IMG/VR virus record: IMGVR_UViG_3300034127_000023
Span: 1 to 35,795 of that record
DNA length: 35,795 bases
Reading direction: 5' to 3' (one strand)
DNA from: a virus
Lineage: Duplodnaviria; Caudoviricetes
The translations under genes and the position numbers were made by a program. How positions within the stretch are numbered: the first letter of the stretch is position 1; every line of letters begins with the position of its first letter. This document shows, piece after piece, positions 5,109 through 33,690 of this stretch. The notes beneath the pieces were generated by a model. It was not told the DNA's origin, did not search any database, and saw nothing but the letters and a program-made list of their open reading frames with translations.

Positions 5109-5132
5109 CTAACCATCCTTGGTCAATGATTT

Positions 5133-5297
5133 TTATTTATAAAAAGAATCATCGTGACTCATATGAATATTAATTTCTTGAATTGGTTTTTTTATATTAT
5201 TATTTTTTTCAAAAAACTTTGAACTATAAGGAGCTGAAAATACTTGTCCTTTATTTTTTATTTCAATTATTCTTTTATTTTGTGGTGTTTTTAACAT
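5133..5297 (-). CDS. Small hypothetical protein, 54 aa (MLKTPQNKRII...), not in ORF track
   Basis: AAGGAG SD upstream of ATG, open frame to TAA. Confidence 0.45.
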   Translation of the reverse strand: MLKTPQNKRIIEIKNKGQVFSAPYSSKFFEKNNNIKKPIQEINIHMSHDDSFYK

Positions 5298-5331
5298 TTC
5301 AAGACTCCTTTAATTAATTATTAATATTAAA

Positions 5332-5529
5332 TTAATGTAGCCCTTTAGCTATCAATCCAATAATTGCACTATTGAAACCTATAATTATTCATATAATCCA
5401 TCTTAAATCGCGTTTTATTAATTTAATATCATCTTTTAATATCTCATTTGATGTTTCTTGTTTAGTAAGTCTTGATTCAAACAATAAGTCGTATTTTGTT
5501 GTTAATATTATTTCTTCTTCTCTAGTCAA
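5332..5529 (-). pseudogene. Coiled-coil/C-terminal TM protein related to the 33.7-35.1 kb array, with an in-frame TGA at 5389-5391
   Basis: Reads LTREEEIILTTKYDLLFESRLTKQETSNEILKDDIKLIKRDLRWII*IIIGFNSAIIGLIAKGLH*. The tail resembles ...MVAHGFHWF of 34040..34357. Confidence 0.65.
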
Positions 5530-5612
5530 ATGATAAATCCTGATTATTCGATAAATATTTAACAAAAATTACCAATTTATAACATAATATAGATATATGT
5601 ATGTTCAAATTG

Positions 5613-6317
5613 TTAAAACGGTAACCAACCAACCCCAATATTGACATATTGCCAGTCAATTGGATATGACGTGTCAAAGTATGATTGCTTGCGCATAGTT
5701 AAATCTTTAGGACTTACATCCATCAATTTTTTTCTTATTTCTTCATACTTTTTCATAGCTTGCTCAGGAAATGTTGCTCCCCATTCTGAGCAAATATAAT
5801 TGGCTAATTCATAACGTAAATATTCAATATAATAAAAATCATAAGTTAAGCTTAAATCAGTGTTTAAGGCCGCCTCTGTAAGAGCAAATTTTCCTTGCAT
5901 CTTTATTTGATAGATGCCACCAGGTAAAAAATACATATAGACATTCATGCCATCCAATACACGTTCAGCGCGATAACTAAACGGAAGGTTAGCAATATTA
6001 TCTACACGCGGAGTTCCAAAATATTCAAATCTACTTGCTTCATACATGCTATATCTGACAACGCCAATATTAAATGTCATCGTATCAATCATTAACAGAT
6101 TGGGTATAAAGTAAAGCTCTTGGTTTGGAACTGTATTAAATTCATAAGAAGTAAAGTACGGAATTAACCGCATATCCGTACTTTTGTAATCAAGTATTGC
6201 GTTTAATAAATATAAACCGTCTGAAATTTGACTTGCATTTGGAGTTTGCAAATCACGACTTACTATTTGTGATAAATAAAACGCTCTCGTAATTAACTGC
6301 TGCGCTGTATAAGCCAT
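5613..6317 (-). CDS. Head-to-tail adaptor (P22 gp4 position), 234 aa
   Basis: N-terminus TAQQLITRAF...DGLYLLNAIL and C-terminal LRYELA are typical of podophage adaptors. Synteny agrees. Confidence 0.75.
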   Translation of the reverse strand: MAYTAQQLITRAFYLSQIVSRDLQTPNASQISDGLYLLNAILDYKSTDMRLIPYFTSYEFNTVPNQELYFIPNLLMIDTMTFNIGVVRYSMYEASRFEYFGTPRVDNIANLPFSYRAERVLDGMNVYMYFLPGGIYQIKMQGKFALTEAALNTDLSLTYDFYYIEYLRYELANYICSEWGATFPEQAMKKYEEIRKKLMDVSPKDLTMRKQSYFDTSYPIDWQYVNIGVGWLPF

Positions 6318-6345
6318 GATTGCAAATCCTTATGCAATTTAGCGA

Positions 6346-7119
6346 TTAAATAAAGAACTCATAACCAACAACGCTTATTGCTACTGCTCCACCTGTTGTT
6401 AACTTATAATTAATTACTGGCGATGGAACTGAAGAAATAGCTACGGTTTGAGCCATCACTAAACTTGTACTTGTTACATGTACGCCTGTTACCTGTGAAG
6501 TTACAGATACGGCATTTCCCGTGCCATTTCCAGGAGTTAAGTTTAAAGTCTGACTAGCTGCTGATGGCGTGTAATCAGATAAAACATAAACAGGTGTGTT
6601 ATTTACTAAAGGCACAAGCGGAGTTAAGTCAACGTTTGCATATGTTGCAGAAGCGCCAGCTGTAACCGCTGTTGCCTGAGGCGCATCATACATAAAAAGA
6701 CGATAAGAGCCATTACCAGTTGTCCAATACCCTTTAAGCAAATGTACTGCGGCATCAGTCGCTACATATCCAATTAATTTAAATGCGCTATAACCAAAAG
6801 GGAGTAATGGTTGTGTGTATGATAATGAAAGCATACATCCTGGAAGATTAGAAGTTACTGGGTCTGCAACCAAAAATACCGCGTACACTTTAGAAGCAGC
6901 CAGTGTTCCTGTATCTAGACCATTAAGACCATTTACAGCAGCATTAATAACAACTGGGCTTAATAACTCAAGCTGAAATGTTTCTGTTGAGTCAATTGTT
7001 GTTCCTACTGCAACATCAAGTTTTGTTAATGGAGTTGTTGCATCATTACTAATACCAAGACCATTCGTATAAAAGAATGGAATCTGACCATATTGTTTGT
7101 AAGTTTCAGGAATTGCCAT
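6346..7119 (-). CDS. Virion structural protein (possible capsid decoration), 257 aa
   Basis: T/V/A/G-rich beta protein directly after the coat gene. Confidence 0.55.
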   Translation of the reverse strand: MAIPETYKQYGQIPFFYTNGLGISNDATTPLTKLDVAVGTTIDSTETFQLELLSPVVINAAVNGLNGLDTGTLAASKVYAVFLVADPVTSNLPGCMLSLSYTQPLLPFGYSAFKLIGYVATDAAVHLLKGYWTTGNGSYRLFMYDAPQATAVTAGASATYANVDLTPLVPLVNNTPVYVLSDYTPSAASQTLNLTPGNGTGNAVSVTSQVTGVHVTSTSLVMAQTVAISSVPSPVINYKLTTGGAVAISVVGYEFFI

Positions 7120-7148
7120 GATTAATAATCCTTATAATCAATTAATAA

Positions 7149-7164
7149 GCCCCTTAAAAGGGGC
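7149..7164 (-). terminator. Probable intrinsic terminator after the coat gene
   Basis: GCCCCTT-TT-AAGGGGC followed by TTATT on the minus strand. Confidence 0.6.
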
Positions 7165-7169
7165 AGACA

Positions 7170-8498
7170 TTACATAGGGAAAGCGAGGCGCATAGAGTTT
7201 TCAGCAACCAATGTGCTACCCCATATGCTGTCTCTTACGTAAGCTCTATTGTTGAGACCAAATTGACTACCAAAATAATGTCTTATAGCCGCTCCTGAGT
7301 CTGGGTCTCTCATATTTACTGTTGTAAATGGTGATTCGTCAGGCAAAGTAGGCATAGCCAAATAAAACTGGTCGCCAGACATCAAAATACCAGCCCTATG
7401 CGAAGGAAGCGGTGTGACTGTCATGCCAGCTTGTATTGCATTATTTAAGTTTTGGTTTTGGTTTTGAGCCCAAACTAAACCCACGCCATTAATGGTTTGA
7501 ATTTGAACTGTAACTGAGCCTGCAACAGTTGCAGCGTCCGCTATAGCTCTAAACTGTACAGGTTGTTGGGTGGGCTTATGACCTATGAAGGTTAAAAAGC
7601 GCATGTTTGGCTGCCCTGAAATACCATCATTAAACTGAAATAAATCACCAGCTTTAATAGCATTTGCGTCACTTCCACCAGTAGGCTCAGTAAATGTAAT
7701 AGCAGTAACATTCTGACCGGTTGGATCATTAGTTGATACGACAGTCATCACATTATTAGGAGCAGCTGTATTACCGATAGTTCCAGAAATATGTAATGGC
7801 AGTAAGTTTGACTGATACCATTCTGTATTTGCAAAACGACCTAATTCCCATGACATGGCGTCTTCATTGTTACGATTAATTGCAAATTGGTTTAAACCAG
7901 TTCCAATGATTGCAGGAATGTTTGCAACAGGTAAAATTGAACACATATCATGTTTAGCAGCACCAAAGTCTTCAAAGTTGGCCACTGCTTGAGCTAATTG
8001 CGTATAACTATTAATAGGTAGAACAGCGTTACCATAAAAACGGAAAGGGCCACTATTAACTTGAGGAGAGCCAAAGCTTGGATTTTGTGGATCATTAATT
8101 ACAACTCCGGATACAAAGTTCTTTAAAATGTCTGCCTCAATGATTGAGCCTAGCTCTTTCATTGCAGACATACCAAATCTATCCATGTATTCACGAACGT
8201 TAAATATAAATTGTTGGTCTGTATAAGCTGCTGCAACGTTAGCGGCTTGAGAACAAATAAGTGACTGCACGCGTTGAACAGAAGGTTGCTCAGTTATCAC
8301 AAGACCAGCATATGAAATATATCGAGGTGTTGTATCAAAAGTAACTGTGTCGCCTAAGTTTGCAACAAGTTCATTAAAATTACGAAATTTCTTGTTAGTA
8401 ATATTGATGCCAACAAATTCGTTTAATAACCACGCCAGTTCGGCTTTTTGATACGTTTGTACAGTTTGCAAAACGTTAATAGGTGTAGAGCCAGCCAT
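7170..8498 (-). CDS. Major capsid protein (P22 gp5-like), 442 aa
   Basis: NLGDTVTFD near the N-terminus, IKAGDLFQF insertion-domain motif, C-terminal RDSIWG. Follows the scaffold gene. Confidence 0.85.
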   Translation of the reverse strand: MAGSTPINVLQTVQTYQKAELAWLLNEFVGINITNKKFRNFNELVANLGDTVTFDTTPRYISYAGLVITEQPSVQRVQSLICSQAANVAAAYTDQQFIFNVREYMDRFGMSAMKELGSIIEADILKNFVSGVVINDPQNPSFGSPQVNSGPFRFYGNAVLPINSYTQLAQAVANFEDFGAAKHDMCSILPVANIPAIIGTGLNQFAINRNNEDAMSWELGRFANTEWYQSNLLPLHISGTIGNTAAPNNVMTVVSTNDPTGQNVTAITFTEPTGGSDANAIKAGDLFQFNDGISGQPNMRFLTFIGHKPTQQPVQFRAIADAATVAGSVTVQIQTINGVGLVWAQNQNQNLNNAIQAGMTVTPLPSHRAGILMSGDQFYLAMPTLPDESPFTTVNMRDPDSGAAIRHYFGSQFGLNNRAYVRDSIWGSTLVAENSMRLAFPM

Positions 8499-8548
8499 TT
8501 CAAATCTCCAAAGTCCATTTATTAGGAGATGACAGTCAAATCAGTGTT

Positions 8549-9289
8549 TTAGCGCCTAAACATTTTTCTGTAGTCACTCACACTCATCTGACCATCATCT
8601 ACAGATGCAGTTGATGAGGATTTGAGTTGACCCATTGGATCACGCGCTTGCGATTCTTGAGCTTTAGCGTCTTCGTTCTGCTTAATTGATTTTGCCAAGG
8701 ATGCCATTTGTTTTTGAGCTATATAAGGCTGGTCACGCACATCTGCTAATATTGCTGTTAACTTATGAGGATTATCTATAACTTCCTTCATAATATCGCC
8801 TGTATTATCAAATGTATTGGCCATCTCTATAAACGCATGCATTCTTGGATCGTTATAATTAAGCTGATTGAGTTCTGCTTCTAAACCTGGATATTTTTGT
8901 TCAGCCGCTTGCATTTTGCCCACAAAGGTATTAATTAAGTGGTCTTGTTTAAGCTGCTGAAATTGTGCTTGAAGTGCTTGAGGGGCTTGTTCTGCAATCA
9001 TCCTTTGAACATCTTCTTGACTCAATTGTGGCATGCCACCTAAGCCCTGATTTTGTTGAGGTTGTTGCATCGGTTGCTGTGCTATTTGAGCACCTTGGTC
9101 TTGTTGCATTTGCATAAGTGCTTCCTTTCGTCCTTTCTCATAAGCTCTTTCTCGTTCTCGCTTGACTACATCCGACACCTGCCGTTGATTAAACTTAGGT
9201 AGTTGGTCGTCTTCAATCTCAATCGGTTTCTGAGCTTGCTCTCCTTGCACCAAATCGTCCTGATTCGGCTCATTTTCTCCAACAGTCAT
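8549..9289 (-). CDS. Scaffolding protein (likely start ATG 9289)
   Basis: Q/E-rich coiled coil ending MSVSDYRKMFRR, a typical coat-binding tail. Lies upstream of the coat gene. Confidence 0.8.
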   Translation of the reverse strand: MTVGENEPNQDDLVQGEQAQKPIEIEDDQLPKFNQRQVSDVVKRERERAYEKGRKEALMQMQQDQGAQIAQQPMQQPQQNQGLGGMPQLSQEDVQRMIAEQAPQALQAQFQQLKQDHLINTFVGKMQAAEQKYPGLEAELNQLNYNDPRMHAFIEMANTFDNTGDIMKEVIDNPHKLTAILADVRDQPYIAQKQMASLAKSIKQNEDAKAQESQARDPMGQLKSSSTASVDDGQMSVSDYRKMFRR

Positions 9290-9393
9290 GTTCAAATCCT
9301 TATGTCCTGACTATTAAAATCGCGTCACCGTGATTCATTCTTTAACGTTAGAACGACACGACTATTTTATCCTCGGATAGCTCCGTAATTTAT

Positions 9394-9423
9394 ACATTAT
9401 TACATGGTGTTAAATTTTGTCAA
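9394..9423 (-). promoter_or_regulatory. Putative sigma70 promoter for scaffold/coat
   Basis: TTGACA (9423-9418) with AATAAT or TAATGT at 16-18 nt spacing. Confidence 0.45.
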
Positions 9424-9428
9424 TCTCA

Positions 9429-9584
9429 TTAATACTTGGGCTTTTTCTTCTTATTTTTTTCGCCAGCCTCACTATATGCTATCGCTACCGATTGCTTTTG
9501 CGATTTTCCTCTTTCCATCTCTCGCTTTATGTTCTCTGAAAAGCCTTTTTTTGTTTTAGCTTTGGCCCCTTTTATCAGGGGCAT
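9429..9584 (-). CDS. Small basic phage protein, 51 aa, not in ORF track
   Basis: MPLIKGAKAKTKKGFSENIKREMERGKSQKQSVAIAYSEAG... resembles the MPLKKG...KQAVAIA small proteins of phage head modules. GGAG SD. Confidence 0.75.
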   Translation of the reverse strand: MPLIKGAKAKTKKGFSENIKREMERGKSQKQSVAIAYSEAGEKNKKKKPKY

Positions 9585-9612
9585 TATTATACTCCAATTA
9601 ATCAATTTATGA

Positions 9613-9683
9613 TTCTCTCGGTAGGAATCGAACCTACAACCTGTCGAAAAACATTCAACGCTCTACCATTAAGCTACGAGAGA
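9613..9683 (-). tRNA. Atypical tRNA-like element, possible Asn (GTT), no encoded CCA
   Basis: Acceptor TCTCTCG/CGAGAGA. D arm TAGCTTAATGGTAGAGC. T arm GTAGG-TTCGATT-CCTAC. Anticodon arm GTTGA-ATGTTTT-TCGAC is non-canonical. Confidence 0.65.
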
Positions 9684-9687
9684 ACAT

Positions 9688-9849
9688 TTATTTAAGACTT
9701 GTTTTCTTAACCATTTTTTTAACAAGCATTTTATCTTCTTTAACATCCGGATGCTTTGAAGACTCTTCCATGTGTTTTTTAGCCATCTCATGATGCTCTG
9801 CTGCTTTCTTCATATGATGCGCTGCTTTTTTCTGGTGCATAACTGCCAT
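9688..9849 (-). CDS. His/Lys-rich small protein, 53 aa
   Basis: MAVMHQKKAAHHMKKAAEHHEMAKKHMEE. AAGGAG SD supports the start at 9849. Confidence 0.7.
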   Translation of the reverse strand: MAVMHQKKAAHHMKKAAEHHEMAKKHMEESSKHPDVKEDKMLVKKMVKKTSLK

Positions 9850-9863
9850 TTTTACTCTCCTTG

Positions 9864-10010
9864 TTAAAATCCAGTGCGTTTTCCGACTGTTCCTTTGCAA
9901 TTAGGTTTAGGCTTTTCTTTTGCCTCTTTTAAATATCCTTTTGATTTTTCTTTAAACTCTTTTTCAGTTGAGGTTTTCATTCCTAAGTTACTTACTTTAT
10001 TACCGAACAT
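9864..10010 (-). CDS. Small basic protein, 48 aa, not in ORF track
   Basis: GGGGAG SD, then MFGNKVSNLGMKTSTEKEFKEK...GKRTGF*. Confidence 0.6.
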   Translation of the reverse strand: MFGNKVSNLGMKTSTEKEFKEKSKGYLKEAKEKPKPNCKGTVGKRTGF

Positions 10011-10020
10011 TTTACTCCCC

Positions 10021-10233
10021 TTATTTATTTTTTTTTCCAATAACTTTATTTGCCTTCGAATCTATTTTTTCTTTTGATGCCTCAGAAAGCTTTCCTTTTC
10101 TTACCATCTGAGTTGCCCTTGCTTTTGCATTGATGGCATGACTCTTATCATTAATTGGATATTTTCTTTCACCAGGCAATCCAAAGCTCTTTTTAGGAAT
10201 TTTATTTCTTTTATTGGAAGTAAGTTCACTCAT
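10021..10233 (-). CDS. Small basic protein, DUF6582-like, 70 aa
   Basis: FGLPGERKYPINDKSHAINAKAR motif. Confidence 0.7.
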   Translation of the reverse strand: MSELTSNKRNKIPKKSFGLPGERKYPINDKSHAINAKARATQMVRKGKLSEASKEKIDSKANKVIGKKNK

Positions 10234-10236
10234 GAT

Positions 10237-10362
10237 TTATATCCTGTTTAGAATGTTTTCTTGTATTTTCATTTTTATATAATCTTCACTTATATCATAA
10301 ACATTATTTAATAATGATAGATGTATTTCAGGATCTTCCAAAGGCAAATGATATTCAATCAT
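10237..10362 (-). CDS. Small hypothetical protein, 41 aa
   Basis: Open frame MIEYHLPLEDPE... packed between neighbouring genes. Confidence 0.35.
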   Translation of the reverse strand: MIEYHLPLEDPEIHLSLLNNVYDISEDYIKMKIQENILNRI

Positions 10363-10363
10363 T

Positions 10364-10549
10364 TTAATCAAATGCTCTGAAATAAACTTTTCCAACATTA
10401 TAAATGTCCTCGTTTGTTAATTTTCTTTGTAATTTTTCTTTGTTTAAATTACGTTTTGCTTTTTTATTATTCGTATACATTGCATCAGCTAATCTTTTGG
10501 TAAAATTTGGATTCATTTTTTGGTTAATTTTATTTCTGTTAGCCATCAC
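10364..10549 (-). CDS. Small basic hypothetical protein, about 60 aa
   Basis: ORF track. AAGGA upstream. K/N/R-rich. Confidence 0.55.
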   Translation of the reverse strand: MMANRNKINQKMNPNFTKRLADAMYTNNKKAKRNLNKEKLQRKLTNEDIYNVGKVYFRAFD

Positions 10550-10563
10550 AAAATCCTTTTTTT

Positions 10564-10737
10564 CTATTTGTCTCTCTTATAAAGATTTTCCATAATCTTT
10601 GTTCTATATTGTTGAGATGCGCCATCTGTTAAATTATAAAGTGATTTATGAATTTGTTCCTTTGTAAATCCATCTCTTTCTAATTTCTCACATCCTCCTG
10701 GCTGTTCAAAATCCTTTAATGTTGGAGTGTATTTCAT
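10564..10737 (-). CDS. Small hypothetical protein, 57 aa, not in ORF track
   Basis: MKYTPTLKDFEQPGGCEKLERDGF... with a TAAGGA SD overlapping the portal stop. Confidence 0.55.
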   Translation of the reverse strand: MKYTPTLKDFEQPGGCEKLERDGFTKEQIHKSLYNLTDGASQQYRTKIMENLYKRDK

Positions 10738-10750
10738 AATAGTAATATCC

Positions 10751-12910
10751 TTATTTAGTTTTTTTATTTATTTCATGATGTAATTTTACAGAATCTCTAA
10801 TGCTGTTGTGATGATCCATTTCACGAGAATGTTCTCTGTCTTTTATTTCTGCAAGTTTTGCTGCTGTTTCAAGTGCATGATTAACTTCTGATGTCTGGGC
10901 CTCTTCTAAACGCACGGAGCTATCAATTTGAGCTTGCGTTACCTTTGATTCAGCAGTTAAAATTTCTGAATCAGCTAATTCTTTGTCTATGGCTAATCTT
11001 GCAATTTCAAACTGGTTATTTATTTGGTCTTGTTCTATTGAATGCTGTACTTTTTGTATTTCAGCCTGAGCTCTTATCATTTGTGGTTGCTGCATTGCCA
11101 TTTGTTGAGCCATTTGTACCTGCTGTTGTTGCTGCTGCTGTTGTTGCTCTAACCATTGTGGTATTGCTTCTTCTAATTCATCTGCTCCGTGCACTGTTAG
11201 ATTCTTGACTAATATTGGCAAGCCTTGAGGGCTGTTCATAAATTTGTTGAATTCTTCTGACACGCCCATCAATGCAATAATTTGTGTTAATGCTTGGTTT
11301 TTTTGAACTTGAAAGTTAACACCTGGTTCAATGTTGACGTAAATTGCACGCTCTTCGTAATCTAAATACGGCTGACCTTCTTGATTTATTTTTTGAGATG
11401 ACTTTTCACCCTTCATGTTCACTATTGAAATAGTTCTTTGACCTAATAGGTACTTGGGCATTAAATCAACGATAACATTAGCCACATGAGCCAGTGATTG
11501 GAGATAACCAACAACATAGGGCATAGATGCTGAATTACCCACAGACGCACTTTCAATAACCGCTTTCCCTGAAAGGTCATTGTCATTTTTCCCAAGATTT
11601 GAAGCGTAAGATCCAAGAATTGATTGAGTTGTGGCTTCTGTCATTTGAAAGGCATTCATTATTTCTGGAGGTGCGGGTGGGTTTTGCACTTCTCGGATAG
11701 GGTCTGGTATTGGTTTATCTGGATTGTTTTCGCTATAAGCATTTACAACTATAGTTGAAGCTATCTGAGGATTAGCTAGTGCTTTTAAATAATCGTCTTC
11801 TTGAGGGATTGATTCTTTCTTGATGATGAATTTAGACATATTCATGTTTTCAAGATAGTTAGCCAGGCATTGACCAGCGAAGTTCTTTAAATCTTGGGCG
11901 CCTTTTGCATTATATATATAAGGGCGCGTCATTAGGAAAGTTGTGTTTGAATTATCATTGGTAAGAACAACGGAGTTACCATCAAAAAATATATGTGGAA
12001 GATACGAATAGTCTGTTTCTTCATAACTTATAATTTGTGATTCAATGATTTTGTATCGACACACCGTCTCTAATTCAGTCCAACGAGGCTTGCCAACAAC
12101 GACAGGAAATTGTTCTATAACTTGTTCATCTTCCCAGTATTGTTGCATCTTTTTGTAATTTTTTTCTGTTATTACTTTTCCATTAGCAAGCTTCATAATT
12201 TTTACGCGGCGCTTTTTCTTTTCGTAATAATCAGCTACAAGAACAATCTTTTGCTCTTTAGAGTCTTTATATGACCAATTAAATCCTTCAATTTCTTTTG
12301 AGTATGATATGTTGCTAATTTTTACATCTGGATGCTGGTCTGTAAAATCTTCAATAGTCATCGGGAATATTTCAAATGACCATTTGCCATCACTTTTATC
12401 AGAATTTCTAGCCATTGGGTCAAACCCACATAACGTTGGGTCAAAGACTCTTTTTAAATAAATGTTTTGTTCCATTGACATGGGACTTGCAAAATCGGTA
12501 TAAACTTTTGCGACTGAAAATCCGCCAGTTAATAAATCTTTGTATATTTCGTATGAAAAGTTTTCTTTATTTGCTTGATAGATAATATGTCTTATATGAC
12601 CTTCCACAGTATCGATGACTTGATGGTTTACTGGGACGCCTTCGGCAGGTGAAACTTCTATTGAAGGCTCATGTTTTGCAAATTCACCTAAAAGCCGTGA
12701 TACATAGCTCTCAACAATATTAAATTCTACGACAGGCTTGTGCGCTTTATGAAGAAGTGCTTTTTGTTGTTGGTTAACAGTTGTTTCAAAGCAATATTTT
12801 CTAAATTCACGATATCGTCTTGAGTTTTCATGAAAATAAAGATATGACTTAGATATATTTTCTTTTATACGCGCAAGATTTGGCTGCGCTGACTTAATAA
12901 TTAGAGCCAT
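10751..12910 (-). CDS. Portal protein (P22 gp1-like), likely start ATG 12910
   Basis: About 720 aa. FDPMAR..D.SD..W.F and SGKAV motifs, Q-rich C-terminal barrel. Follows TerL. Confidence 0.9.
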   Translation of the reverse strand: MALIIKSAQPNLARIKENISKSYLYFHENSRRYREFRKYCFETTVNQQQKALLHKAHKPVVEFNIVESYVSRLLGEFAKHEPSIEVSPAEGVPVNHQVIDTVEGHIRHIIYQANKENFSYEIYKDLLTGGFSVAKVYTDFASPMSMEQNIYLKRVFDPTLCGFDPMARNSDKSDGKWSFEIFPMTIEDFTDQHPDVKISNISYSKEIEGFNWSYKDSKEQKIVLVADYYEKKKRRVKIMKLANGKVITEKNYKKMQQYWEDEQVIEQFPVVVGKPRWTELETVCRYKIIESQIISYEETDYSYLPHIFFDGNSVVLTNDNSNTTFLMTRPYIYNAKGAQDLKNFAGQCLANYLENMNMSKFIIKKESIPQEDDYLKALANPQIASTIVVNAYSENNPDKPIPDPIREVQNPPAPPEIMNAFQMTEATTQSILGSYASNLGKNDNDLSGKAVIESASVGNSASMPYVVGYLQSLAHVANVIVDLMPKYLLGQRTISIVNMKGEKSSQKINQEGQPYLDYEERAIYVNIEPGVNFQVQKNQALTQIIALMGVSEEFNKFMNSPQGLPILVKNLTVHGADELEEAIPQWLEQQQQQQQQQVQMAQQMAMQQPQMIRAQAEIQKVQHSIEQDQINNQFEIARLAIDKELADSEILTAESKVTQAQIDSSVRLEEAQTSEVNHALETAAKLAEIKDREHSREMDHHNSIRDSVKLHHEINKKTK

Positions 12911-14483
12911 GGTATAGACTTTCCTTGGTCTTAAAGAACTCATCCTGAGTTTTCATAATTTTAGCAGCAATTTCGTTTGATTTACTATCTATTTGGCTTA
13001 ATTTTGCAGGATATGCAAAAGTTAACGCAAGAGCATCTGCTTCATCACTTGAACGGATGCCTCTTTTTTTCATATCCTCTTTAGATTCCATTTGCAAACG
13101 GGTGTTTGAATCAAATTTATATTTAACATTACATAAATCAGCATGCAGAGAGTCGCTATCAGGTATTTGACTAGGCTCATCCATCAGCCATTGCTTCATT
13201 TCTCCCCACATTTCAGCGCGTTTATTAAGGTATCGTTCTGCGTTTAATGGTTTGCTGCCGAAATTTACCGGAACAACAAGATGTTTGTAACCTAATTCAC
13301 TTAACCTATCAACGACCCCTGCGCCTAGGCCGCCTACATCGACAAACACCTTATCGGGCCTTTCTTCTTGTATAATGCGATTAACAAGTCCTGTCACTTC
13401 CATAACGTCGCGCTTTACGTAAGATTGTAGATTGTACGCAACACGTCCTTTTCTCCTTATGATGGACGTTCTATCGTCTCCATAACGCGCAGGGTCAACG
13501 CCTATATAAAGATGGCCATATTGTTGAGCATTTGTTTTTCGAGACTTCATAACAAAGTCAGCTTCGATAAAGCTGTCTTCACCTGTTATTTGAAAAGCTT
13601 CTGTAGGATTGTTGGGGTATTCTTGCTTAAATGCTTTCTCTCCATTAAGCCCATTAACAGAAAGCTCAGCTATTTTAAAACGACGCCAGTTTAATTGTTC
13701 ATTTGATAATCCGTATTGGCGTTTAATGTCATCTTCATCCAATGTTGTGATGAATCCATCTAAGCAGGTTTTTTTATATTTATCTTGCCAAAACCAAGGA
13801 ACAAAGACGGCAATAAATTCTGATTGTCCCGCCTCAGCCTTTTGCCATGCTTGATGGTAATAATTGCCAACACCGTTCGCGGTCGATTCTAGTATTATTT
13901 CAGTTCCAGGGAGCCCTGGAACTGCTTGCATGATTCCTTTTGCATGCTCATCTGCATTTGACCAGAAAGCCACTTCTGACCCATGCAATAACTGTATAGT
14001 CGATGAGCGACCTACTGCCTTGTTTTCAGCAGTTCCAAGCTTGTAACCACTATCTAAAGAACCAAAAACCAGCTCTTTTGCGTTCGAAGTAGTTACTTCA
14101 GGCCTTACCAAATTTGGCGTGTTTTCATAATAACGTTGCGCCATCTTGTATAGATTCTGTGTTGCATCAAGTGCATGCGTTAATATAAACGCTTGTATGC
14201 CTCGATTGTGCGTCACTCTATGGTAAAACCTTGCTCCTACATAAGTAGAGCATCCTTGCTGCCTTCCCTTAAGCACAACTGCTCGCACGAATCCTGTGCT
14301 TTCCTTTTGTGCTTCTAATCTGCTATGTATGTATTTTTGTGCTGTATTTAGATCAAAATTTACAATACTTCCAGATTCACTTCTTATCTTAAGACATTTC
14401 CTTGCATAGTGTGGAAAATCATCCTTTAGCTTTTGTCTTATCTTTTTTTCTTCGGGCGTCATCCTGCCATCCTTTATTTTCAT
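12894..14483 (-). CDS. terL: Terminase large subunit (start 14483 or 14462)
   Basis: Walker A VLKGRQQGCST, Walker B LLHGSE, ESTANG coupling motif, nuclease GVDPARYGDD and SSDEADALALTF. Confidence 0.95.
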   Translation of the reverse strand: MKIKDGRMTPEEKKIRQKLKDDFPHYARKCLKIRSESGSIVNFDLNTAQKYIHSRLEAQKESTGFVRAVVLKGRQQGCSTYVGARFYHRVTHNRGIQAFILTHALDATQNLYKMAQRYYENTPNLVRPEVTTSNAKELVFGSLDSGYKLGTAENKAVGRSSTIQLLHGSEVAFWSNADEHAKGIMQAVPGLPGTEIILESTANGVGNYYHQAWQKAEAGQSEFIAVFVPWFWQDKYKKTCLDGFITTLDEDDIKRQYGLSNEQLNWRRFKIAELSVNGLNGEKAFKQEYPNNPTEAFQITGEDSFIEADFVMKSRKTNAQQYGHLYIGVDPARYGDDRTSIIRRKGRVAYNLQSYVKRDVMEVTGLVNRIIQEERPDKVFVDVGGLGAGVVDRLSELGYKHLVVPVNFGSKPLNAERYLNKRAEMWGEMKQWLMDEPSQIPDSDSLHADLCNVKYKFDSNTRLQMESKEDMKKRGIRSSDEADALALTFAYPAKLSQIDSKSNEIAAKIMKTQDEFFKTKESLYHGSNY

Positions 14484-14703
14484 CCTCTATTTCAACAGGA
14501 TCGGGCATACAAAAGTGAGTTATTTCACTTTCTCCAAGCGCTATTTCATCAATGTAACAAGTTGGTTCAAATTTACAGCCATCTTCTTCGTTAGAATGAT
14601 AACGAGCATTGCAAATTACTGAATCATTGTCTTTTTTTCTAACAATATGCACTAATACATGGCCAACAACCGGTATATATTTCTTAACGCTATACCATTT
14701 CAT
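14419..14703 (-). CDS. Hypothetical protein, DUF551-like pattern
   Basis: MKWYSVKKYIP...ITHFCMPDP. Confidence 0.5.
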   Translation of the reverse strand: MKWYSVKKYIPVVGHVLVHIVRKKDNDSVICNARYHSNEEDGCKFEPTCYIDEIALGESEITHFCMPDPVEIEDENKGWQDDARRKKDKTKAKG

Positions 14704-16743: not shown

Positions 16744-16758
16744 ATTACATTAAAACAC

Positions 16759-23969: not shown

Positions 23970-23970
23970 A

Positions 23971-24360
23971 TTATTTATTCCATCCATCATATTCTGAGCA
24001 GTCTCTAGCGCCGGTTAATAATGTTGCTTTCACTTTGTTTTTTTCATAAACAATATGAGTTCCTAAAAGGGAATAATTTCCCATATCTGGATCTTCAACA
24101 ATGGTATGACCTAAAGCTATCTTGTCAGAATTAATCTTTGGAGCTGTAATGGTATGAGTGTAATAAGCGTCATGATCCATATTTCCGGCTGGATTATGAT
24201 TAGATCTTAATTCAGCCCAAAAAGGATGGTTTTTATACCAGGAGACTGTTTGATTAAGACCATTGCAATTAGCAATACTTCCATGAGTCAAGCTAAGTAA
24301 TCCTGCATGACTTGAAAAAGCTAAAAGTGTAAATGATATTCCCGTTACTATTTTTTTCAT
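23971..24360 (-). CDS. Secreted hypothetical protein (signal peptide), 129 aa
   Basis: MKKIVTGISFTLLAFSSHA signal peptide. His-rich. Two Cys near the ends of the mature chain. Confidence 0.75.
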   Translation of the reverse strand: MKKIVTGISFTLLAFSSHAGLLSLTHGSIANCNGLNQTVSWYKNHPFWAELRSNHNPAGNMDHDAYYTHTITAPKINSDKIALGHTIVEDPDMGNYSLLGTHIVYEKNKVKATLLTGARDCSEYDGWNK

Positions 24361-25474: not shown

Positions 25475-26581
25475 CTAAATAACTTTATTTTTTAATGATA
25501 ATCTTTTTTTGGAATATTTTCGCTGTGAATCATAAAGTCTTTTTTTCTTACATGATTTGCAGTAACTAGGCTTAATTATTCCATAAATTCTTTTTACTTG
25601 AGTCGTCACTCCGCAATCAGAACAACATCTGTCTATAATAATATTTTTTGAAATATCTTTGTCCATTGTTCCATTATATTTTCTAGAAGCGATAGTTCCG
25701 CATGGTTGGCATCTTTTTTTTAATCCAGGATATGGATGCAAACCACTTTTGCAAGTTATTGGATTAGGTTTTTTTATTCCATATTTTTTATTATATTTTT
25801 CTATTGTTATTTCATGAACACCTAAAATAGATGCTATTTCTGCATTTGTTTTATATTCTTTCTTCAATTTTTTTATCTGTTCTTCATATTTATTCCCGCG
25901 AAGGCCATGTTTGATTTTTATTTCTTTAGGCAAAGAATTAATTATTTGATTATATTTTTTTTTATAATCAAAATTATTTTTTTTATAAGCATGAAGCATT
26001 GAAATTCCTGGTACATTTTTTTTATTTTTTCTGCAAATATCAGTGGGATGACATCTATTTTTTTCTGCTAATTCTAAAATTTTAAAATAATCAACATCTA
26101 AAAATACCTTTAAATGTTTTCTTGATGATATTCTGGCTTTGCATTCTTCAATTATAAATTTAGGTTTTTTTCTTTGTTTGGCTCTGTTTTTCATTATAAC
26201 TTTAAGTTTTTCGCGAGAAGGCGGCGTAAAAATTCCTTCTGCAACTAATTTTTTCCCATGCCTTATATTCATTTCTTTTGTAGATGTACAAGTAAGTCCA
26301 CAGCCCCAAGGAAGACCGTATTTTTCTTTATATTGGTCGGCATTAGTTCCATGAACAAGTAGATGAGCGCATAGTGATTTATAAGACTTCCCACATAACA
26401 AGCATAATAATTTATCAGAGTTAAGATAAGCCTCCATCTCTTCTCTCGTATTAAAAGGTTTTTCTACTGGAAAACCAGGCATTATTTTTCTACGAGATTT
26501 TAATTTCCATTCGTTTATTAGATCTTGCTTTTTTTTCATGCAAGACCCCATATGTCTTTTTCCTGTTATCTCGTAGCTCAT
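25475..26581 (-). CDS. Ros/MucR-domain protein fused to an HTH and Cys-rich modules, 368 aa
   Basis: DKLLCLLCGKSYKSLCAHLLVHGTNADQYKEKYGLP. TNAEIASILGVHEITI. CKSGLH..CQPC and CSDC..YCKSC. Confidence 0.75.
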   Translation of the reverse strand: MSYEITGKRHMGSCMKKKQDLINEWKLKSRRKIMPGFPVEKPFNTREEMEAYLNSDKLLCLLCGKSYKSLCAHLLVHGTNADQYKEKYGLPWGCGLTCTSTKEMNIRHGKKLVAEGIFTPPSREKLKVIMKNRAKQRKKPKFIIEECKARISSRKHLKVFLDVDYFKILELAEKNRCHPTDICRKNKKNVPGISMLHAYKKNNFDYKKKYNQIINSLPKEIKIKHGLRGNKYEEQIKKLKKEYKTNAEIASILGVHEITIEKYNKKYGIKKPNPITCKSGLHPYPGLKKRCQPCGTIASRKYNGTMDKDISKNIIIDRCCSDCGVTTQVKRIYGIIKPSYCKSCKKKRLYDSQRKYSKKRLSLKNKVI

Positions 26582-26748
26582 ATAATTTTCTTATTTGTCC
26601 TAAATAATTTTTTTCTGCATTGAATGGTTTTTCCTTTGCTTATTTTTAAATAGGATAAGATGCAATATTCATAATCTGTTATAGGTTCTATTCCAGAAAT
26701 GATTGTTGCCATTTGTTCTAGTCTTTTGCGATTTTCATATGAATTCAT
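26578..26748 (-). CDS. Small hypothetical protein, 56 aa
   Basis: MNSYENRKRLEQ... Stop overlaps the MucR-like start (ATGA). Confidence 0.45.
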   Translation of the reverse strand: MNSYENRKRLEQMATIISGIEPITDYEYCILSYLKISKGKTIQCRKKLFRTNKKII

Positions 26749-29504: not shown

Positions 29505-29516
29505 ATAAGTTTATCC

Positions 29517-30008
29517 TTAAACTACAGTGATATTTCCCTGACTTGAAACAACCGTCCAAATTGTATTGGCTGTTAAACAACGCAATCTAATGTTATCAAA
29601 TTGAGATACACTAGATAAAGATCCACCTGCTCCTAATGTTGTCGCTAATGTTCCAAAATGAATTTGTTGTCCAGCAGCTTGAGCTAATGTCCATAAACCA
29701 GAGCCTTTACCATTTATTTCTATAAAATCACCAATAGCTGATGTTGTAGGCAATGTAAAAACGACTAAAGTTACACCAGCATCAGATGTATACCCAATGT
29801 TGGATGTCATTGTTACTGGTGTTGTTGTTTGATCAATCCATCCAGAGCTACCTGAGCTTGAAATAGTTATTGATCCAGGGCCGTTTACGATAGAAACTCC
29901 AGCGCCAGCAGTTAATGTAGCTGCAACTGGATTTACGCCGGCAGAACCAATAAATGTTTGACCATCTAATGTTAATTGTGGGGTGTTAGTCGAGTTATTT
30001 GTAGCCAT
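29517..30008 (-). CDS. Short fibre protein, 163 aa
   Basis: LTAGAGVSIVNGPGSITIS. C-terminal domain shared with 30033..30950. Confidence 0.7.
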   Translation of the reverse strand: MATNNSTNTPQLTLDGQTFIGSAGVNPVAATLTAGAGVSIVNGPGSITISSSGSSGWIDQTTTPVTMTSNIGYTSDAGVTLVVFTLPTTSAIGDFIEINGKGSGLWTLAQAAGQQIHFGTLATTLGAGGSLSSVSQFDNIRLRCLTANTIWTVVSSQGNITVV

Positions 30009-30032
30009 AATTATACAATCCTTGTATTAATA

Positions 30033-30950
30033 TTAAGTGTAATTTAAATTTCCCATTGAAGAATAAGCAGACCAATTTGTATTAGCAATTGTACATACTA
30101 TAGAAATACTGTCTCCAACTGTGTTTGATGACCAGCTTCCAGTAATGCCCGTTGTTGATGAAATATCGCCAACTCTTATAGTTTGTCCAGAATTTTGTAC
30201 AATTGACCAAGATATAGAAGTTCCCATTGCAATTTGCAAAGTAGCTCCAACTTTGGAAGTGATGGGCAAAGTAAAAGCAACATTTGACCCAGAATTGTTT
30301 GCAATGTAACTGAATTCTGGAACTAAATTCGCAGTTGGTGCTGCAATTGAAATCCAAGTTGGAAAAATAACAGTAGATGTATTTAAAATATCAAATTGAA
30401 TAAATGTTATTGGACTTGAGCCTATAATAAATGGTCCAGCTGAAGTTTCAATAAACGAAATATTTGATAATGTATTTCCCTCTTGAACTAATACAATTTG
30501 ATATTGAATAATTTGAGCAGGATTATTGTAATCTGTTGCTCTTGTTAGAACCCAGTTTGTTAAACTTGTTCCTACATTTGAAACAAAATAAATTCCATTT
30601 TGAGTTGTATTTGATTGTTGCCATACTAAAACTCTTTGATTAAGTTGTAAGTTGATTCCATCAATTATTAATACGCCCATTGTACTATTATTAGTTAATG
30701 TAGCGCCTACTCCTGCCGTTCCGTTGTCATAAGTAGCTGATAATGGAGTGGTAGTTGCAACTAAAACAGCTTGAACAGTTTTAATTCCAACAGCTGAAAA
30801 GTAGAAATCAAATTCATCGCTTCTAATAAATTTTTTAGTAGTTCCAGCAGCGGCTTGTGTTGTATCTTGAGTATCTGTAGCCGGAGTTAAATCTGTGGCC
30901 TTTGGTACACCCGTTGCTAGTGTACTAATAGGTTCAATAATCTGAGCCAT
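30033..30950 (-). CDS. Tail fibre-associated protein, 305 aa
   Basis: IDG..L....RVLV..Q....QNGIY.V...WVLTRATD motif of phage fibre proteins. Confidence 0.75.
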   Translation of the reverse strand: MAQIIEPISTLATGVPKATDLTPATDTQDTTQAAAGTTKKFIRSDEFDFYFSAVGIKTVQAVLVATTTPLSATYDNGTAGVGATLTNNSTMGVLIIDGINLQLNQRVLVWQQSNTTQNGIYFVSNVGTSLTNWVLTRATDYNNPAQIIQYQIVLVQEGNTLSNISFIETSAGPFIIGSSPITFIQFDILNTSTVIFPTWISIAAPTANLVPEFSYIANNSGSNVAFTLPITSKVGATLQIAMGTSISWSIVQNSGQTIRVGDISSTTGITGSWSSNTVGDSISIVCTIANTNWSAYSSMGNLNYT

Positions 30951-30968
30951 CCTTAGCCCCTATGTTAA

Positions 30969-31349
30969 TTACATCACATTAGTATATAAATTTGTTGCAT
31001 AATATTTAACTGTTATATGAGAGCCGCCAGTATCAGAAGTAATAAAACTTAATGTTTGTCCGGCTTTTACGTAACGAATCAATCCAATTTGAGGAATTAT
31101 TTCTGAAGTCGAAGCCGAAAATGCTCCAGTAGGTGCCACAGCAGTTCCAATTCCATCAAAGTATACTGTTTTACCATATTCAATAGCTATAACTGCCATC
31201 CAATATCGTTGTGAAGAAGGAACAGTAATATGTTGTTCTGTAGTGGCTGCTAGAAGAGCTGAAAAACCATCTAATGCAACTGGTAAATTTGCGCTAGTTC
31301 CTATTGCTGTTCCTGAATCGTCTCTATTAATTAAATAACCAGTAGACAT
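30969..31349 (-). CDS. Small virion protein, 126 aa
   Basis: Beta-rich. Lies inside the tail operon. Confidence 0.6.
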   Translation of the reverse strand: MSTGYLINRDDSGTAIGTSANLPVALDGFSALLAATTEQHITVPSSQRYWMAVIAIEYGKTVYFDGIGTAVAPTGAFSASTSEIIPQIGLIRYVKAGQTLSFITSDTGGSHITVKYYATNLYTNVM

Positions 31350-31363
31350 ATTTTAATCTCCGT

Positions 31364-33550
31364 TTAAAATGCGCCAATTCTTAAATCAATAACATAATGA
31401 TAATCTACATAAGCATAAGCGTTAGGCAATGCTGCAACAGCTTGAGTAAATAATGCTGCTGGATTTAAAGATGCATATTGAAAAGATTTTTGGCCAAATT
31501 GAATTGCTGTATAATTTCCTGCAATAGCAATATCTTGGGTATAAGCCGTCCCATTATTGACTATAGTTGCTAAAACATTCCCGCCTGTTCCAGTTATGGG
31601 AGAATAAAAAGTAATTCTTGATGCAGCAGCCGGAACCCATTTTACAGAATTATAATTTAGATCAATTAAAGTTCCATACATTGAAGTAGTCGCTCCTCCG
31701 CCATCTGGTTGAGCATTTTGTCTAGCCGTTATTAGTCCAGATGGAGATGCGGCCGTTCCAGGAACAACGGCATTGTCATAACTTTTTTCATAGAAAAATT
31801 GACATTCTTTCAATACATCATCAAATGTTTTTGGTGCTGGTTTAGTTGGAATATCACCTGGGACAACTGATATAGAATTAAAATTAACTGTAGCTGCATT
31901 GTTCATTGCAGCAAATCCTACAAAAATTGCGAAATAACTTGCTGTTGCTGATGCTGTAGTTCCTGTGGCATCCCAGCCATTAAAACCATAATTGGATAAA
32001 GTTGAATTCAACAAGAATTGCGCATTACCTGCATTATTATTGCGTGTTATTTCTGTCCAGCCTGCTGCAACAGCTGTTGGATATCCATTTGCATTAACAG
32101 TAGTAACAAATGACAAGGGCAGCGTTGGAACAAGTGCGTTTGGTGTATACCATAAGGATATTGTTCCAATTAATCCATTTGTATTTGATGTAAATGCTTC
32201 AACATTCACGGACAATCTATTTTTAAACATTTCTTCAGTAATTGGAGCTGGTAAATATTGTATTAATCCAAATTGAGTTGCATTGGTTACATCTGATGAT
32301 GTAATAATCATAGCGCCATTTGAGGCTCGTGTAGTTCCCATTTTACTAATCGTTGTTTGAAATAAAATGGTTTGATCCCAAGTTGATTTATTAAAAACAG
32401 CAGCAGCAGGAACCGTGCTTCCATTAGGCTGAGCTGGATTTAATGGGAAATCCCAACCCACTAGATAAGATGATATAGGTTTATCTTGTAAAGGCTGACT
32501 GTAATAATGAAATAAATGGTCTAACTCTCTTTGCGTTGTTTGTTCGATAAAATTGGTTGTGATGTTTTCATTTGCGACGCCAATTACTTGTATGCTTGTT
32601 ATTTGAATATGAGCGCCTGGAGGTATATTAATTATAATATCCACATAGCCTGGCGTTAAAGGACTGTCGTTATTTATAACCCCATTTATAGCTTTAGTTC
32701 CTGAATACTGATTAAATCCTGTTGCAGGAATTACTTGATTTATTAATTGATAGCTAGTTCCTATGGGTGCATTTGATGGAACATAATCCATTGTTAAAAA
32801 GTGCGTGCTGGAATCTTGCGATCCCACTACAAACGATCCATTTGCAAATCCATTAGCTAGAATCCTTGGATCTTCTAACAATCTTTGCCTTAACTTAAGA
32901 GACGTTAAAGTATTTGATGAAGTAATATCGAGTAAAAATGATGGGTTTGATTTAATTGCGTTATTAGTTGATGCAATTTGTTTGACAGTAAAAGTTCCTG
33001 AGCCACTTGTAATAACATCCCAATCTGGCGCTATATTAGTTACTAATGCTGTGCCTGTGACATTATAAACAACACCTGTTGAAGGTGTCGTTGTGCTGAA
33101 ATTAACTACTGAAAACTGTGGATTTGAAATAATATTATCTGTAAGCGCTAAACTAGACAAACTACTTGATGCGGAAGATAAGTTAGGCCAAGCATCTCTA
33201 CTAAATTGAAAGACACCTTGTGCACTATATACAGTAATAAAATATAAATCGATTATTCCTAATGTTGAATTGGGAGAACCATCATAAGGAAAAAAATAAG
33301 GAATAATATCATTTCCATTTTCATCAATAAAAGTTCCTACTGATGAAAGCTGCAATGGATTTGCTAAAGGTGTATATATAAAAGTATTAGATGGAGTAGC
33401 GCTTAACTGATACACAGGCTTTAACACCGTGTGATCGTTATCTTCATAAAAAGTCACTATTCCCGCGCTTAAAGGAAATCCAGAGTCTTTATCTACAAAA
33501 TAATCTTGAAGACTAGGTACTTGAACAAACCTAGGATCTAGTGAAGGCAT
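31364..33550 (-). CDS. Main tail fibre/tailspike-like protein with N-terminal particle-binding domain, 728 aa
   Basis: DKDSGFPLSAGIVTFYED...LKPVY..NPLQLSSVG resembles podophage tailspike head-binding domains. LKECQFFYEKSY fibre motif. Confidence 0.8.
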   Translation of the reverse strand: MPSLDPRFVQVPSLQDYFVDKDSGFPLSAGIVTFYEDNDHTVLKPVYQLSATPSNTFIYTPLANPLQLSSVGTFIDENGNDIIPYFFPYDGSPNSTLGIIDLYFITVYSAQGVFQFSRDAWPNLSSASSSLSSLALTDNIISNPQFSVVNFSTTTPSTGVVYNVTGTALVTNIAPDWDVITSGSGTFTVKQIASTNNAIKSNPSFLLDITSSNTLTSLKLRQRLLEDPRILANGFANGSFVVGSQDSSTHFLTMDYVPSNAPIGTSYQLINQVIPATGFNQYSGTKAINGVINNDSPLTPGYVDIIINIPPGAHIQITSIQVIGVANENITTNFIEQTTQRELDHLFHYYSQPLQDKPISSYLVGWDFPLNPAQPNGSTVPAAAVFNKSTWDQTILFQTTISKMGTTRASNGAMIITSSDVTNATQFGLIQYLPAPITEEMFKNRLSVNVEAFTSNTNGLIGTISLWYTPNALVPTLPLSFVTTVNANGYPTAVAAGWTEITRNNNAGNAQFLLNSTLSNYGFNGWDATGTTASATASYFAIFVGFAAMNNAATVNFNSISVVPGDIPTKPAPKTFDDVLKECQFFYEKSYDNAVVPGTAASPSGLITARQNAQPDGGGATTSMYGTLIDLNYNSVKWVPAAASRITFYSPITGTGGNVLATIVNNGTAYTQDIAIAGNYTAIQFGQKSFQYASLNPAALFTQAVAALPNAYAYVDYHYVIDLRIGAF

Positions 33551-33690
33551 AGATAAATCCTTTATCTATATTGATTGTTCATTCTACAATAACTTCAATT
33601 GAAATACCAATTTATCAAATTATTTTGACCTATGTTTGATTAAATTATGAGCATTTGATATACTATAATTTTGAGCAATATGAAATTATT

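Follow-up and report, generated by a model that had tools for sequence, protein, structure and literature searches.

About a dozen start codons of a P22-like phage lie within or beside short inverted repeats with GGA in the loop, which raises the question of whether these repeats are operators for CsrA and, if so, how much of virion synthesis they would govern. The window that we analysed, 35,795 nt long and 33% GC, encodes a portal (PF16510), an Sf6-like TerS (PF20901), and coat, head-closure, and ejection genes in P22 order. A preliminary description had listed ten such repeats, and all ten were recovered at their positions on the minus strand, which carries every feature below unless stated otherwise. 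Hairpins are predicted folds throughout, and loop share denotes the fraction of sampled structures of a 50-nt start region in which GGA lies in a hairpin loop.

Among 52 curated starts in the window, 46 bear a GGA, and at 11 of these the MFE structure places it in a hairpin loop. Shuffling gave 4.5 ± 2.1 such starts (2 of 500 shuffles reached 11) and swapping flanks gave 3.6 ± 1.7 (0 of 500); with an energy filter of ≤ −2 kcal/mol, 6 of 44 starts kept a hairpin against 0.9 expected. The proposed enrichment over shuffled sequence was thus borne out. Its description as genome-wide was not: of the starts that bear GGA, 9 of the 29 late ones and 2 of the 17 others have a hairpin, and the coat, scaffold, TerS, and small portal-to-scaffold genes have none. 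A second GGA within 63 nt is no more frequent at starts with a hairpin than at others (tail genes, 0.53 vs. 0.54), and the portal start is the one clear two-hairpin case.

The tail block opens with a 728-aa gene whose SD, spacer, and AUG are covered by a 10-bp GGA-loop hairpin (33548-33570; loop share 0.99; −5.7 kcal/mol), and stems of at least 5 bp are present at 16 of 40 distinct homologous starts. At the 305-aa fibre gene (30944-30959; 0.99; −4.8 kcal/mol), the loop GGA overlaps the AUG and a G-rich SD occupies the 5′ arm. The hairpin before the 163-aa fibre gene (30013-30027; 0.97) has counterparts with all different arms, stems reaching at least 5 bp in five of the six closest orthologue rows, window included. 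Weaker folds precede the Gly-rich 280-aa fibre gene (AGGA loop, 29508-29523; 0.41; −1.6 kcal/mol) and a 126-aa gene, where an AT-rich hairpin with an ACGGAGA loop (31350-31370; 0.33), absent from the preliminary list, is unfolded when folded alone; 8 of 21 homologous starts have one. An AGGA-loop hairpin overlaps the AUG of the VRR-NUC gene (22463-22476; 1.00; −4.7 kcal/mol), and its stem differs among the orthologues in G001, G006, G018, and G027.

The first late gene (16159-16353), which encodes a CxxC...CxxC zinc-finger-like protein, is preceded by an AGGA-loop hairpin (16356-16371; 0.95). Two hairpins had also been reported on the plus, or early, strand: the one before the 40-aa acidic ORF at 16881 is present, with an AGGAG loop (16864-16878; 0.97), whereas that at 16546 is not (0.00). 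Tandem AGGA does precede both TerL and the scaffold gene, as described, but forms only a 3-bp stem at TerL (14462-14474; 0.64) and no hairpin at the scaffold (0.00). The portal SD lies in a weak hairpin with a 4-bp stem and 8-nt loop (12916-12931; 0.35), and about 20 nt upstream, in the 3′ end of TerL, we found a second GGA hairpin that had not been listed (12937-12951; −3.3 kcal/mol); this makes the portal a two-site candidate. The upstream hairpin is kept in G002, carries a two-sided change in G001, and is absent in more distant rows. Further along, a bulged, weak hairpin precedes the 257-aa post-coat gene (7119-7140; 0.25; −2.0 kcal/mol), and firmer ones precede the 234-aa gene called gp4-like by its position (6319-6338; 0.96; −4.8 kcal/mol; kept in L001, L002, and L072, with another stem in L057) and the gp10-like head-closure gene (phrog_578; AGGA loop, 5109-5126; 0.78; −5.1 kcal/mol; stems differing in L002, L072, and L003). 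Another hairpin new to the list (1227-1241; 0.84) precedes a 594-aa gene spanning the circular junction.

The coat family of this phage is widespread, with 2838 relatives among 7998 candidates scored. For the family comparison we handled 36 virus records (G007, G028, G031, G032, and G040 were left out), with start codons from our own SD-weighted caller; pooled counts include G022-G026, which are without the family coat. GGA-loop hairpins occur at 72 of 214 tail, neck, and ejection starts vs. 20.2 expected, a class picked after per-cluster counts had been seen, and head and other classes also exceed the null. Within-genome swapping plus the energy filter left 33 of 217 vs. 5.1. The preferred loop is AGGAT (57/292 vs. 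25.7 expected; AGGAG, 22/280 vs. 18.4), AAGGAT forms 31 of 88 stable family sites, and of the 98 family sites whose stems reach 6 bp or more, 91 have GGA between −14 and −8. GGA lies over the AUG in two window genes; where it overlaps the AUG, stems of at least 4 bp occur at 10 of 29 starts vs. 1 of 8 in host genes. The earlier observation that stems vary while the loop is kept extends to the relatives' orthologues: stems are exchanged and arms replaced wholesale. About half the family is without hairpins, and enrichment is absent from 18 of 32 phage records, five of those 18 being without the family coat.

Could such hairpins be a by-product of AAGGA Shine-Dalgarno sequences with an A-rich stretch on one side and a U-rich stretch on the other in 33% GC DNA? 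Many stems are A/U-only, and three of the listed sites fold weakly. Nonetheless, composition-matched and within-genome nulls were exceeded 3- to 9-fold, and GGA-in-loop was the sole enriched arrangement in family tail genes (38 vs. 8.0), with SD-in-3′-arm (15 vs. 21.2), upstream (18 vs. 16.6), and downstream (10 vs. 12.9) geometries not enriched. Control phages were at the null (P22, 1/47; Sf6, 0/37; PspH6, 2/39; TP901-1, 3/42; 80alpha, 3/51), as were host gene starts (13/202 vs. 11.9 expected); the AT-rich control phages and host genes stayed at or below it with the energy filter too. The within-genome swap and the geometry test have largely refuted the chance explanation, and we give it hardly any credence. 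A reading as DNA palindromes was rejected, as the stems have no common sequence and TCC loops show no excess (5 vs. 3.2). The G-U vs. A-C asymmetry in stems (20 vs. 14) was not significant, so strand-level RNA selection is unsupported by that measure.

The preliminary suggestion that virion synthesis as a whole may be gated in this way was not supported. Extra GGA sites and more than half of the phage records lack enrichment, and coat and scaffold, whose starts rarely bear these hairpins across the family (2/22 and 3/20), have a sigma70-type promoter, a leader, and an SD-in-stem hairpin of their own. The promoter match ahead of the scaffold-coat block (9396-9423; 11/12, extended −10) is the best in positions 1-18000, and many relatives have TTGAC in the corresponding position; the packaging block is preceded by a sigma70-like match of 10/12 (16382-16410), a consensus match only. 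Late blocks appear, from their sequence, to run from plain sigma70-type promoters. The scaffold gene has a conserved structured 5′ leader (9310-9386) with a covarying H-type pseudoknot, then a hairpin and, ahead of the SD, another pseudoknot-like element. It matches no Rfam family; our model of it found 6 matches in 51 sources, none of them in P22, Sf6, PspH6, TP901-1, or 80alpha, and failed to detect the more divergent leaders, those of G019, G020, G021, and the G227 prophage. At the coat start (8504-8530), the SD is buried in a 6-bp stem, a geometry unlike the GGA-loop class, and 32 of 48 distinct coat starts have an anti-SD upstream, compared with 2 of 72 starts with GGAG in four other genes.

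The host is probably a member of the Legionellales, an order assigned from prophages and a cargo gene. Syntenic prophages occur in two Legionellales genomes, G227 and G225, and both are hairpin-enriched. Relatives of the cargo gene (23262-23969) occur in 64 of 203 genomes of G034's order, in 2 of 401 Gammaproteobacteria genomes class-wide, and, among 72,556 plasmids, only in two Legionella plasmids. We found no integrated prophage close to the window (coat identity is 49-52% for G227, G225, and G511), and bins of Nitrospirae, Methylococcaceae, and Leucothrix also contain contigs of the family. A tblastn search with the coat had no match among annotated phages and plasmids, and a cluster look-up for 10 coat relatives returned no host names. 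A tRNA-Asn was rejected as a host marker, the sole match in five genomes examined being partial, at 80%, in G511. A search of sequencing runs listed one DNA run, which may be the source, and no RNA run. As the preliminary description would require, csrA is present in 204 of 204 genomes of this probable host order, up to three genomes of the order having been left unscored here and in the cargo-gene count.

That description had also noted no visible csrA or Q in the window, and our searches agree. Neither Pfam nor a paralogue-inclusive HMM finds csrA there; the best HMM match, at 10.7 bits, was discarded, its position indicating an apparently out-of-frame segment inside the 594-aa gene. No Q-type late antiterminator, integrase, or CI was found among the 57 window proteins; orthologues of the zinc-finger gene match a Q-like PHROG in 2 of 9 cases, weakly (E 0.06-0.08). 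Nor does the window hold a convincing Csr/Rsm sponge sRNA or an Rfam match to one, and two GGA clusters considered as such lie inside ORFs missed by our gene caller. Among relatives, CsrA is encoded in 5 of 36 virus records and the G511 prophage, with three more loci by HMM. Stable hairpins occur at 0 of 49 clustered tail starts in csrA-carrying relatives vs. 33 of 210 in the rest, and in 0 of 6 carrier genomes vs. 14 of 25 others (Fisher 0.02, kinship uncorrected). The exception is G003, a csrA carrier that counts as enriched under the stem rule (12 vs. 3.2), with one stable fibre-gene hairpin outside our gene clusters. Within the family, carrying csrA and having stable hairpins at tail genes largely exclude each other, and most relatives with their own csrA are among its hairpin-free half. 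Hairpin-poor members also occur in csrA-positive hosts (G511 prophage, 0/9; L081, 0/5).

We favour the reading, at a probability of roughly two in three, that the hairpins are single-site operators for host CsrA. About a dozen low-copy genes of the tail, neck, packaging, and accessory classes have GGA-loop repeats over their start sites; these repeats would fold into RNA hairpins in vivo, where CsrA of the probable Legionellales host, or a host paralogue, may bind them and keep ribosomes from loading as long as free CsrA is abundant. Repression would be lifted when RsmX/Y/Z sequester CsrA at the transmissive-phase switch or, alternatively, when late mRNA out-titrates it. Head proteins would come under separate control, through the scaffold leader and coat SD stem. 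With apparently plain sigma70-type late promoters and Q not found, the hairpins would therefore supply part of the late control, at the post-transcriptional level. That they form a growth-phase gate on particle completion is a more tentative proposal, since a constant damper fits the same data as timing by CsrA availability.

Such a damper might need no protein: a weak stem across SD, spacer, and AUG, combined with a short AGGA SD, would set low output of virion parts, the SD remaining in the loop because burying it would shut the gene off. Concentration of the hairpins on low-copy tail and neck genes and their rarity on coat and scaffold suit this idea, as do the RNA structure at other starts in the family, the unenriched second GGA sites, and a small excess of non-GGA SD loops (GGT, 22 vs. 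14.2; GGG with stems of at least 6 bp, 10 vs. 3.8). But tail genes show no excess of any other geometry, hairpins that place GGA on the AUG hide the SD yet expose GGA, P22 and Sf6 need similar stoichiometry without such hairpins, and the stable ones are missing from csrA-carrying relatives; we regard protein-independent damping as unlikely. There is a slimmer chance still that a phage-encoded RNA-binding protein reads the hairpins, either a remote CsrA fold or, for example, the product of the zinc-finger first late gene. Some relatives do encode CsrA, and the zinc-finger gene is family-wide and bears a hairpin in several members, yet it is also present in hairpin-poor genomes, the window lacks CsrA by Pfam and HMM, and no gene family tracks hairpin-rich genomes in a gene-presence profile, the best positive one (p=0.019, uncorrected) having homologues in hairpin-poor loci.

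Returning to host CsrA as the reader, we can sketch a broader scenario, which is possible but doubtful: a large undescribed P22-like Legionellales family would have swapped Q-type control for control at the RNA level, with the new tandem-pseudoknot scaffold leader governing the heads; host CsrA keeping tail, neck, packaging, and lysis-region genes shut up to the transmissive phase; infectious particles completed as the amoeba is vacated; and operators lost in lineages that captured their own csrA. The near-exclusion of csrA and operators is a testable evolutionary prediction. If CsrA binds, virion completion would be tied to host growth phase, and the phage supplies concrete candidate CsrA targets, negative controls, and a probable host with a CsrA-run life cycle. 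The results also point to a widespread phage family with prophages in Legionellales, an order with, to our knowledge, one well-characterised phage.

We found no on-topic paper on complete Legionella prophages, and no report of CsrA sites on phage virion mRNAs, in the open-access literature. Legionella phage LME-1 is alike by description in its short tail and probable host group, but differs in its T7-like morphology, and the paper describing it mentions CsrA 0 times (PMC12407071). P22 and Sf6 (Lederbergvirus) share with the window the portal and TerS families and the order of head, neck, and ejection genes; they use Q-type antitermination, whereas in the window Q was not found and sigma70-type promoters adjoin late blocks, and their starts are without GGA-loop hairpins. 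P22 gp8 scaffold autoregulation and the T4 gene 32 pseudoknot operator resemble only the 9310-9386 leader, as structure before the scaffold gene; a literature search on the P22 autoregulation found no relevant paper. CsrA homologues are encoded by 30 of 2517 phage genomes (PMC7366521), and knock-down of the homologue PTXU04 gp28 gave small plaques (PMC11879866); the portions of these two papers available to us name no phage mRNA target, and the latter, from 2025, describes the role of CsrA in phage life cycles as previously untested. Some members of our family carry csrA as those phages do; the window does not. In the L. pneumophila CsrA regulon (fleQ, lqsR), from the window's probable host order, an AAGGA or AGGA loop likewise overlaps the RBS, as at fleQ, and relief comes via RsmX/Y/Z in the transmissive phase, but fleQ has two sites and the window genes mostly one (PMC5338858, in part). 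Full repression by CsrA usually involves two sites 10-63 nt apart, although this is not obligatory, and hfq is described, in the material available, as a single-site target. The family's AAGGAT loops match the CsrA SELEX consensus and its six-base loop, and several stems, at 6-10 bp, exceed most stems given in the available part of that study (PMC7652899). CsrA, RsmA, and RsmE operators such as E. coli glgC, hfq, and pgaA also present GGA in a short loop that covers the SD or the start codon, with an AAGGAU core; the putative operators of the window differ in lying on phage virion genes, in being mostly single, and in their often longer, AU-rich stems. Host starts overall show no excess of such hairpins, whereas a third of the tail starts in this phage family carry them.

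All ten inverted repeats over minus-strand starts, and both tandem AGGA stretches, are present as the preliminary description listed them. When 52 curated start regions were folded, GGA lay in a hairpin loop at 11 of the 46 GGA-containing starts, compared with 4.5 in shuffles (2/500 as high) and 3.6 in a flank-swap null (0/500 as high), which bears out the proposed enrichment. Seven listed sites fold strongly (GGA in the loop in 0.78–1.00 of sampled structures), while the portal, 29504 and 7119 hairpins fold weakly (0.25–0.41). Three sites beyond the ten turned up in the window; the scaffold tandem AGGA and start 16546 gave no GGA-loop fold. The pattern had been called genome-wide, a term we drop because the motif is missing from coat, scaffold and TerS. 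A 40-aa, highly acidic ORF (16881–17003, plus strand) follows a strong GGA hairpin and carries several more GGA in Asp-Gly codons. The 368-aa protein with a ROS/MucR domain (25475–26581, minus strand) has a GGA hairpin at 26591–26607, 19 nt upstream of its start.

Relatives were recovered through the coat (best 80 of 106 viral loci, more being added by further scans), and 31 records were taken whole or nearly whole. With stems of at least 5 bp, 14 of 32 records, window included, exceeded their own swap null (p<0.05) and 18 did not. Pooled over 1684 distinct starts in 34 genomes, GGA hairpins occurred at 72/214 tail, neck and ejection starts (20.2 expected), 21/114 head and packaging starts (11.1) and 95/925 starts of other genes (64.6). 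A −2 kcal/mol filter with within-genome swaps gave 33/217 vs. 5.1, 9/115 vs. 2.5 and 46/933 vs. 13.6, respectively. The suggested comparison with P22 (1/47) and Sf6 (0/37) revealed no excess there; PspH6 (2/39), TP901-1 (3/42), 80alpha (3/51) and 400 kb of the G227 bacterial chromosome (13/202) were likewise at null, and under the energy filter these controls fell below it (phages 1/216 vs. 4.8; chromosome 2/202 vs. 4.1). As predicted, stems change among relatives, orthologous starts holding the loop while the arms are exchanged: the 163-aa fibre gene shows this in 5 of its 6 closest orthologue rows, the 728-aa gene in 16/40, the 126-aa gene in 8/21, VRR-NUC in 4/24 and the lysin in 1/11. Mapped on the coat tree, the trait has a patchy distribution: basal lineages and the clade containing the window have it, and several other lineages lack it. 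We judge the GGA-loop hairpins to be a real, selected RNA feature.

We next consider what might read them. Among tail genes, GGA-in-loop was the only enriched geometry (38 vs. 8.0 expected), with no enrichment of hairpins that sequester the SD or are adjacent to it. AGGAT loops were enriched, but AGGAG, the better SD, was not; AAGGAT accounts for 31 of 88 stable sites. Where GGA lies over AUG, 10 of 29 such family starts have stems of at least 4 bp, and in the window's two starts of this kind the SD is in or beside the 5' arm. Counting against a loop-centred reading are a small excess of non-GGA SD loops (GGT, 22 vs. 14.2), flat G-U asymmetry and the lack of enrichment of second GGA sites at hairpin starts. 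We predict, with a probability of roughly two in three, that the hairpins are operators for host CsrA. CsrA would bind the loops and block initiation at low-copy tail, neck, packaging and accessory genes; repression would lift once RsmX/Y/Z tie up CsrA at the transmissive switch (PMC5338858) or once late mRNA titrates it. The sequence fits a phase gate and a constant damper alike, and a true timing gate, which takes under half of the weight given to host-CsrA operators, is doubtful.

The host of the window very probably belongs to the order of G034, a genome whose contig is labelled uncultured Legionella sp. and whose order we searched. There, csrA is present in 204/204 scored genomes and the family coat in 3/205. 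Syntenic prophages lie between host genes in two bacterial genomes, G227 (one 3.3-Mb contig; C1, ~1,738,600–1,774,000) and G225 (C27, ~49,300–87,400), each with several csrA copies; a class-wide sample added one in G511 (C23, ~254,000–293,000). Hairpins with stems of at least 6 bp are enriched in the first two (5 vs. 1.4 and 4 vs. 1.3), whose neighbouring host genes appear to be shared (matching N-termini). We stop short of certainty because the prophage coats are only 49–52% identical to the window's and other family contigs were found in unrelated bins. Relatives of the cargo gene at 23262–23969 occur in 64/203 genomes of the order, in 2/401 class-wide and in only two plasmids, both Legionella. 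The two cargo genes (23262–24360, minus strand) have signal-peptide-like starts, the 235-aa one being common across the probable host order.

CsrA is encoded by 5/36 virus records, the G511 prophage (where a GGA hairpin lies at the start of csrA itself) and three more loci. Stable hairpins occurred at 0/49 clustered tail starts in six csrA-carrying genomes vs. 33/210 elsewhere, and in 0/6 carriers vs. 14/25 other genomes. This tendency to mutual exclusion is suggestive only, since the carriers represent three or four lineages and G003, a csrA-carrying relative, is a partial exception. It fits a host-made reader: any phage that expressed CsrA early would be expected to shut down its own operators.

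The window is a complete circular phage genome (127-nt terminal repeat, 33% GC). Annotation of its 57 proteins identified P22-like portal, Sf6-like TerS, TerL, coat, head-closure, ejection and fibre genes, lambda-type O/P replication genes, exonuclease/RecT, a Cro-like gene, a GH108 lysin and VRR-NUC, and no integrase, CI, Q or CsrA. Nor did a six-frame Pfam search, or an HMM made from 13 paralogues of phage and host origin, detect CsrA. Gene position, with no profile match, underlies the labels 'gp4-like', 'scaffold' and 'tail spike'. A tRNA-Asn(GTT) (9611–9684, minus strand) separates portal from scaffold. Four short coiled-coil genes (33655–35072, plus strand; two paralogous pairs) have C-terminal hydrophobic helices and identical promoter-like hexamers repeating at 34414, 34638 and 35036. 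The close relative G002 carries an int-alpA RNA (RF02996; L139:2415–2482).

Sigma70-type promoter matches at 9423–9396 and 16410–16382 (minus strand) precede the late blocks; they are matches to the consensus, which overall is matched no more often than in shuffles. The family-wide first late gene (16159–16353, minus strand) encodes a small zinc-finger-like protein (CxxC...CxxC) that has a basic tail and is a candidate late regulator; its PHROG matches are weak (Q-like, E 0.06–0.08, in 2/9 orthologues). The promoter match at 9423–9396 leads into a conserved, covarying, tandem-pseudoknot-like scaffold leader of ~80 nt, with two pseudoknots and a hairpin and no Rfam match; promoter and leader together span 9310–9423 (minus strand) and also occur in L004–L083, L137, L140, L206 and other viral loci. 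Across 43 distinct sequences, 95.1% of cells are paired, with two-sided changes in 9/16 pairs (0/500 shuffles; slid controls 17–42% paired). The first pseudoknot and hairpin covary well (8/10 pairs); for the second element the support is conservation plus a single two-sided change, and in the window's clade the first helix of this element deviates. Visual inspection revealed divergent leaders in G019, G020, G021 and the G227 prophage. The P22 scaffold is reportedly autoregulated, and by analogy we would guess the same role for this leader. The coat SD is buried in a stem (8504–8530, minus strand), an upstream anti-SD being present in 32/48 distinct coat starts, possibly for translational coupling to scaffold.

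Our literature searches turned up no account of phage virion mRNAs carrying CsrA operators; the parts available of PMC7366521 and PMC11879866 concern phage csrA genes only, and those of PMC12407071 describe LME-1 as T7-like, CsrA being absent from that description. Whereas CsrA targets are usually bridged via two sites, the phage starts show no second-site excess. The family's AAGGAT and AGGAT loops match the CsrA SELEX consensus with its six-base loops (PMC7652899), and AAGGAT agrees with the AAGGA loop that overlies the RBS of fleQ (PMC5338858). We regard the hairpins as a candidate variation on a known CsrA control element.
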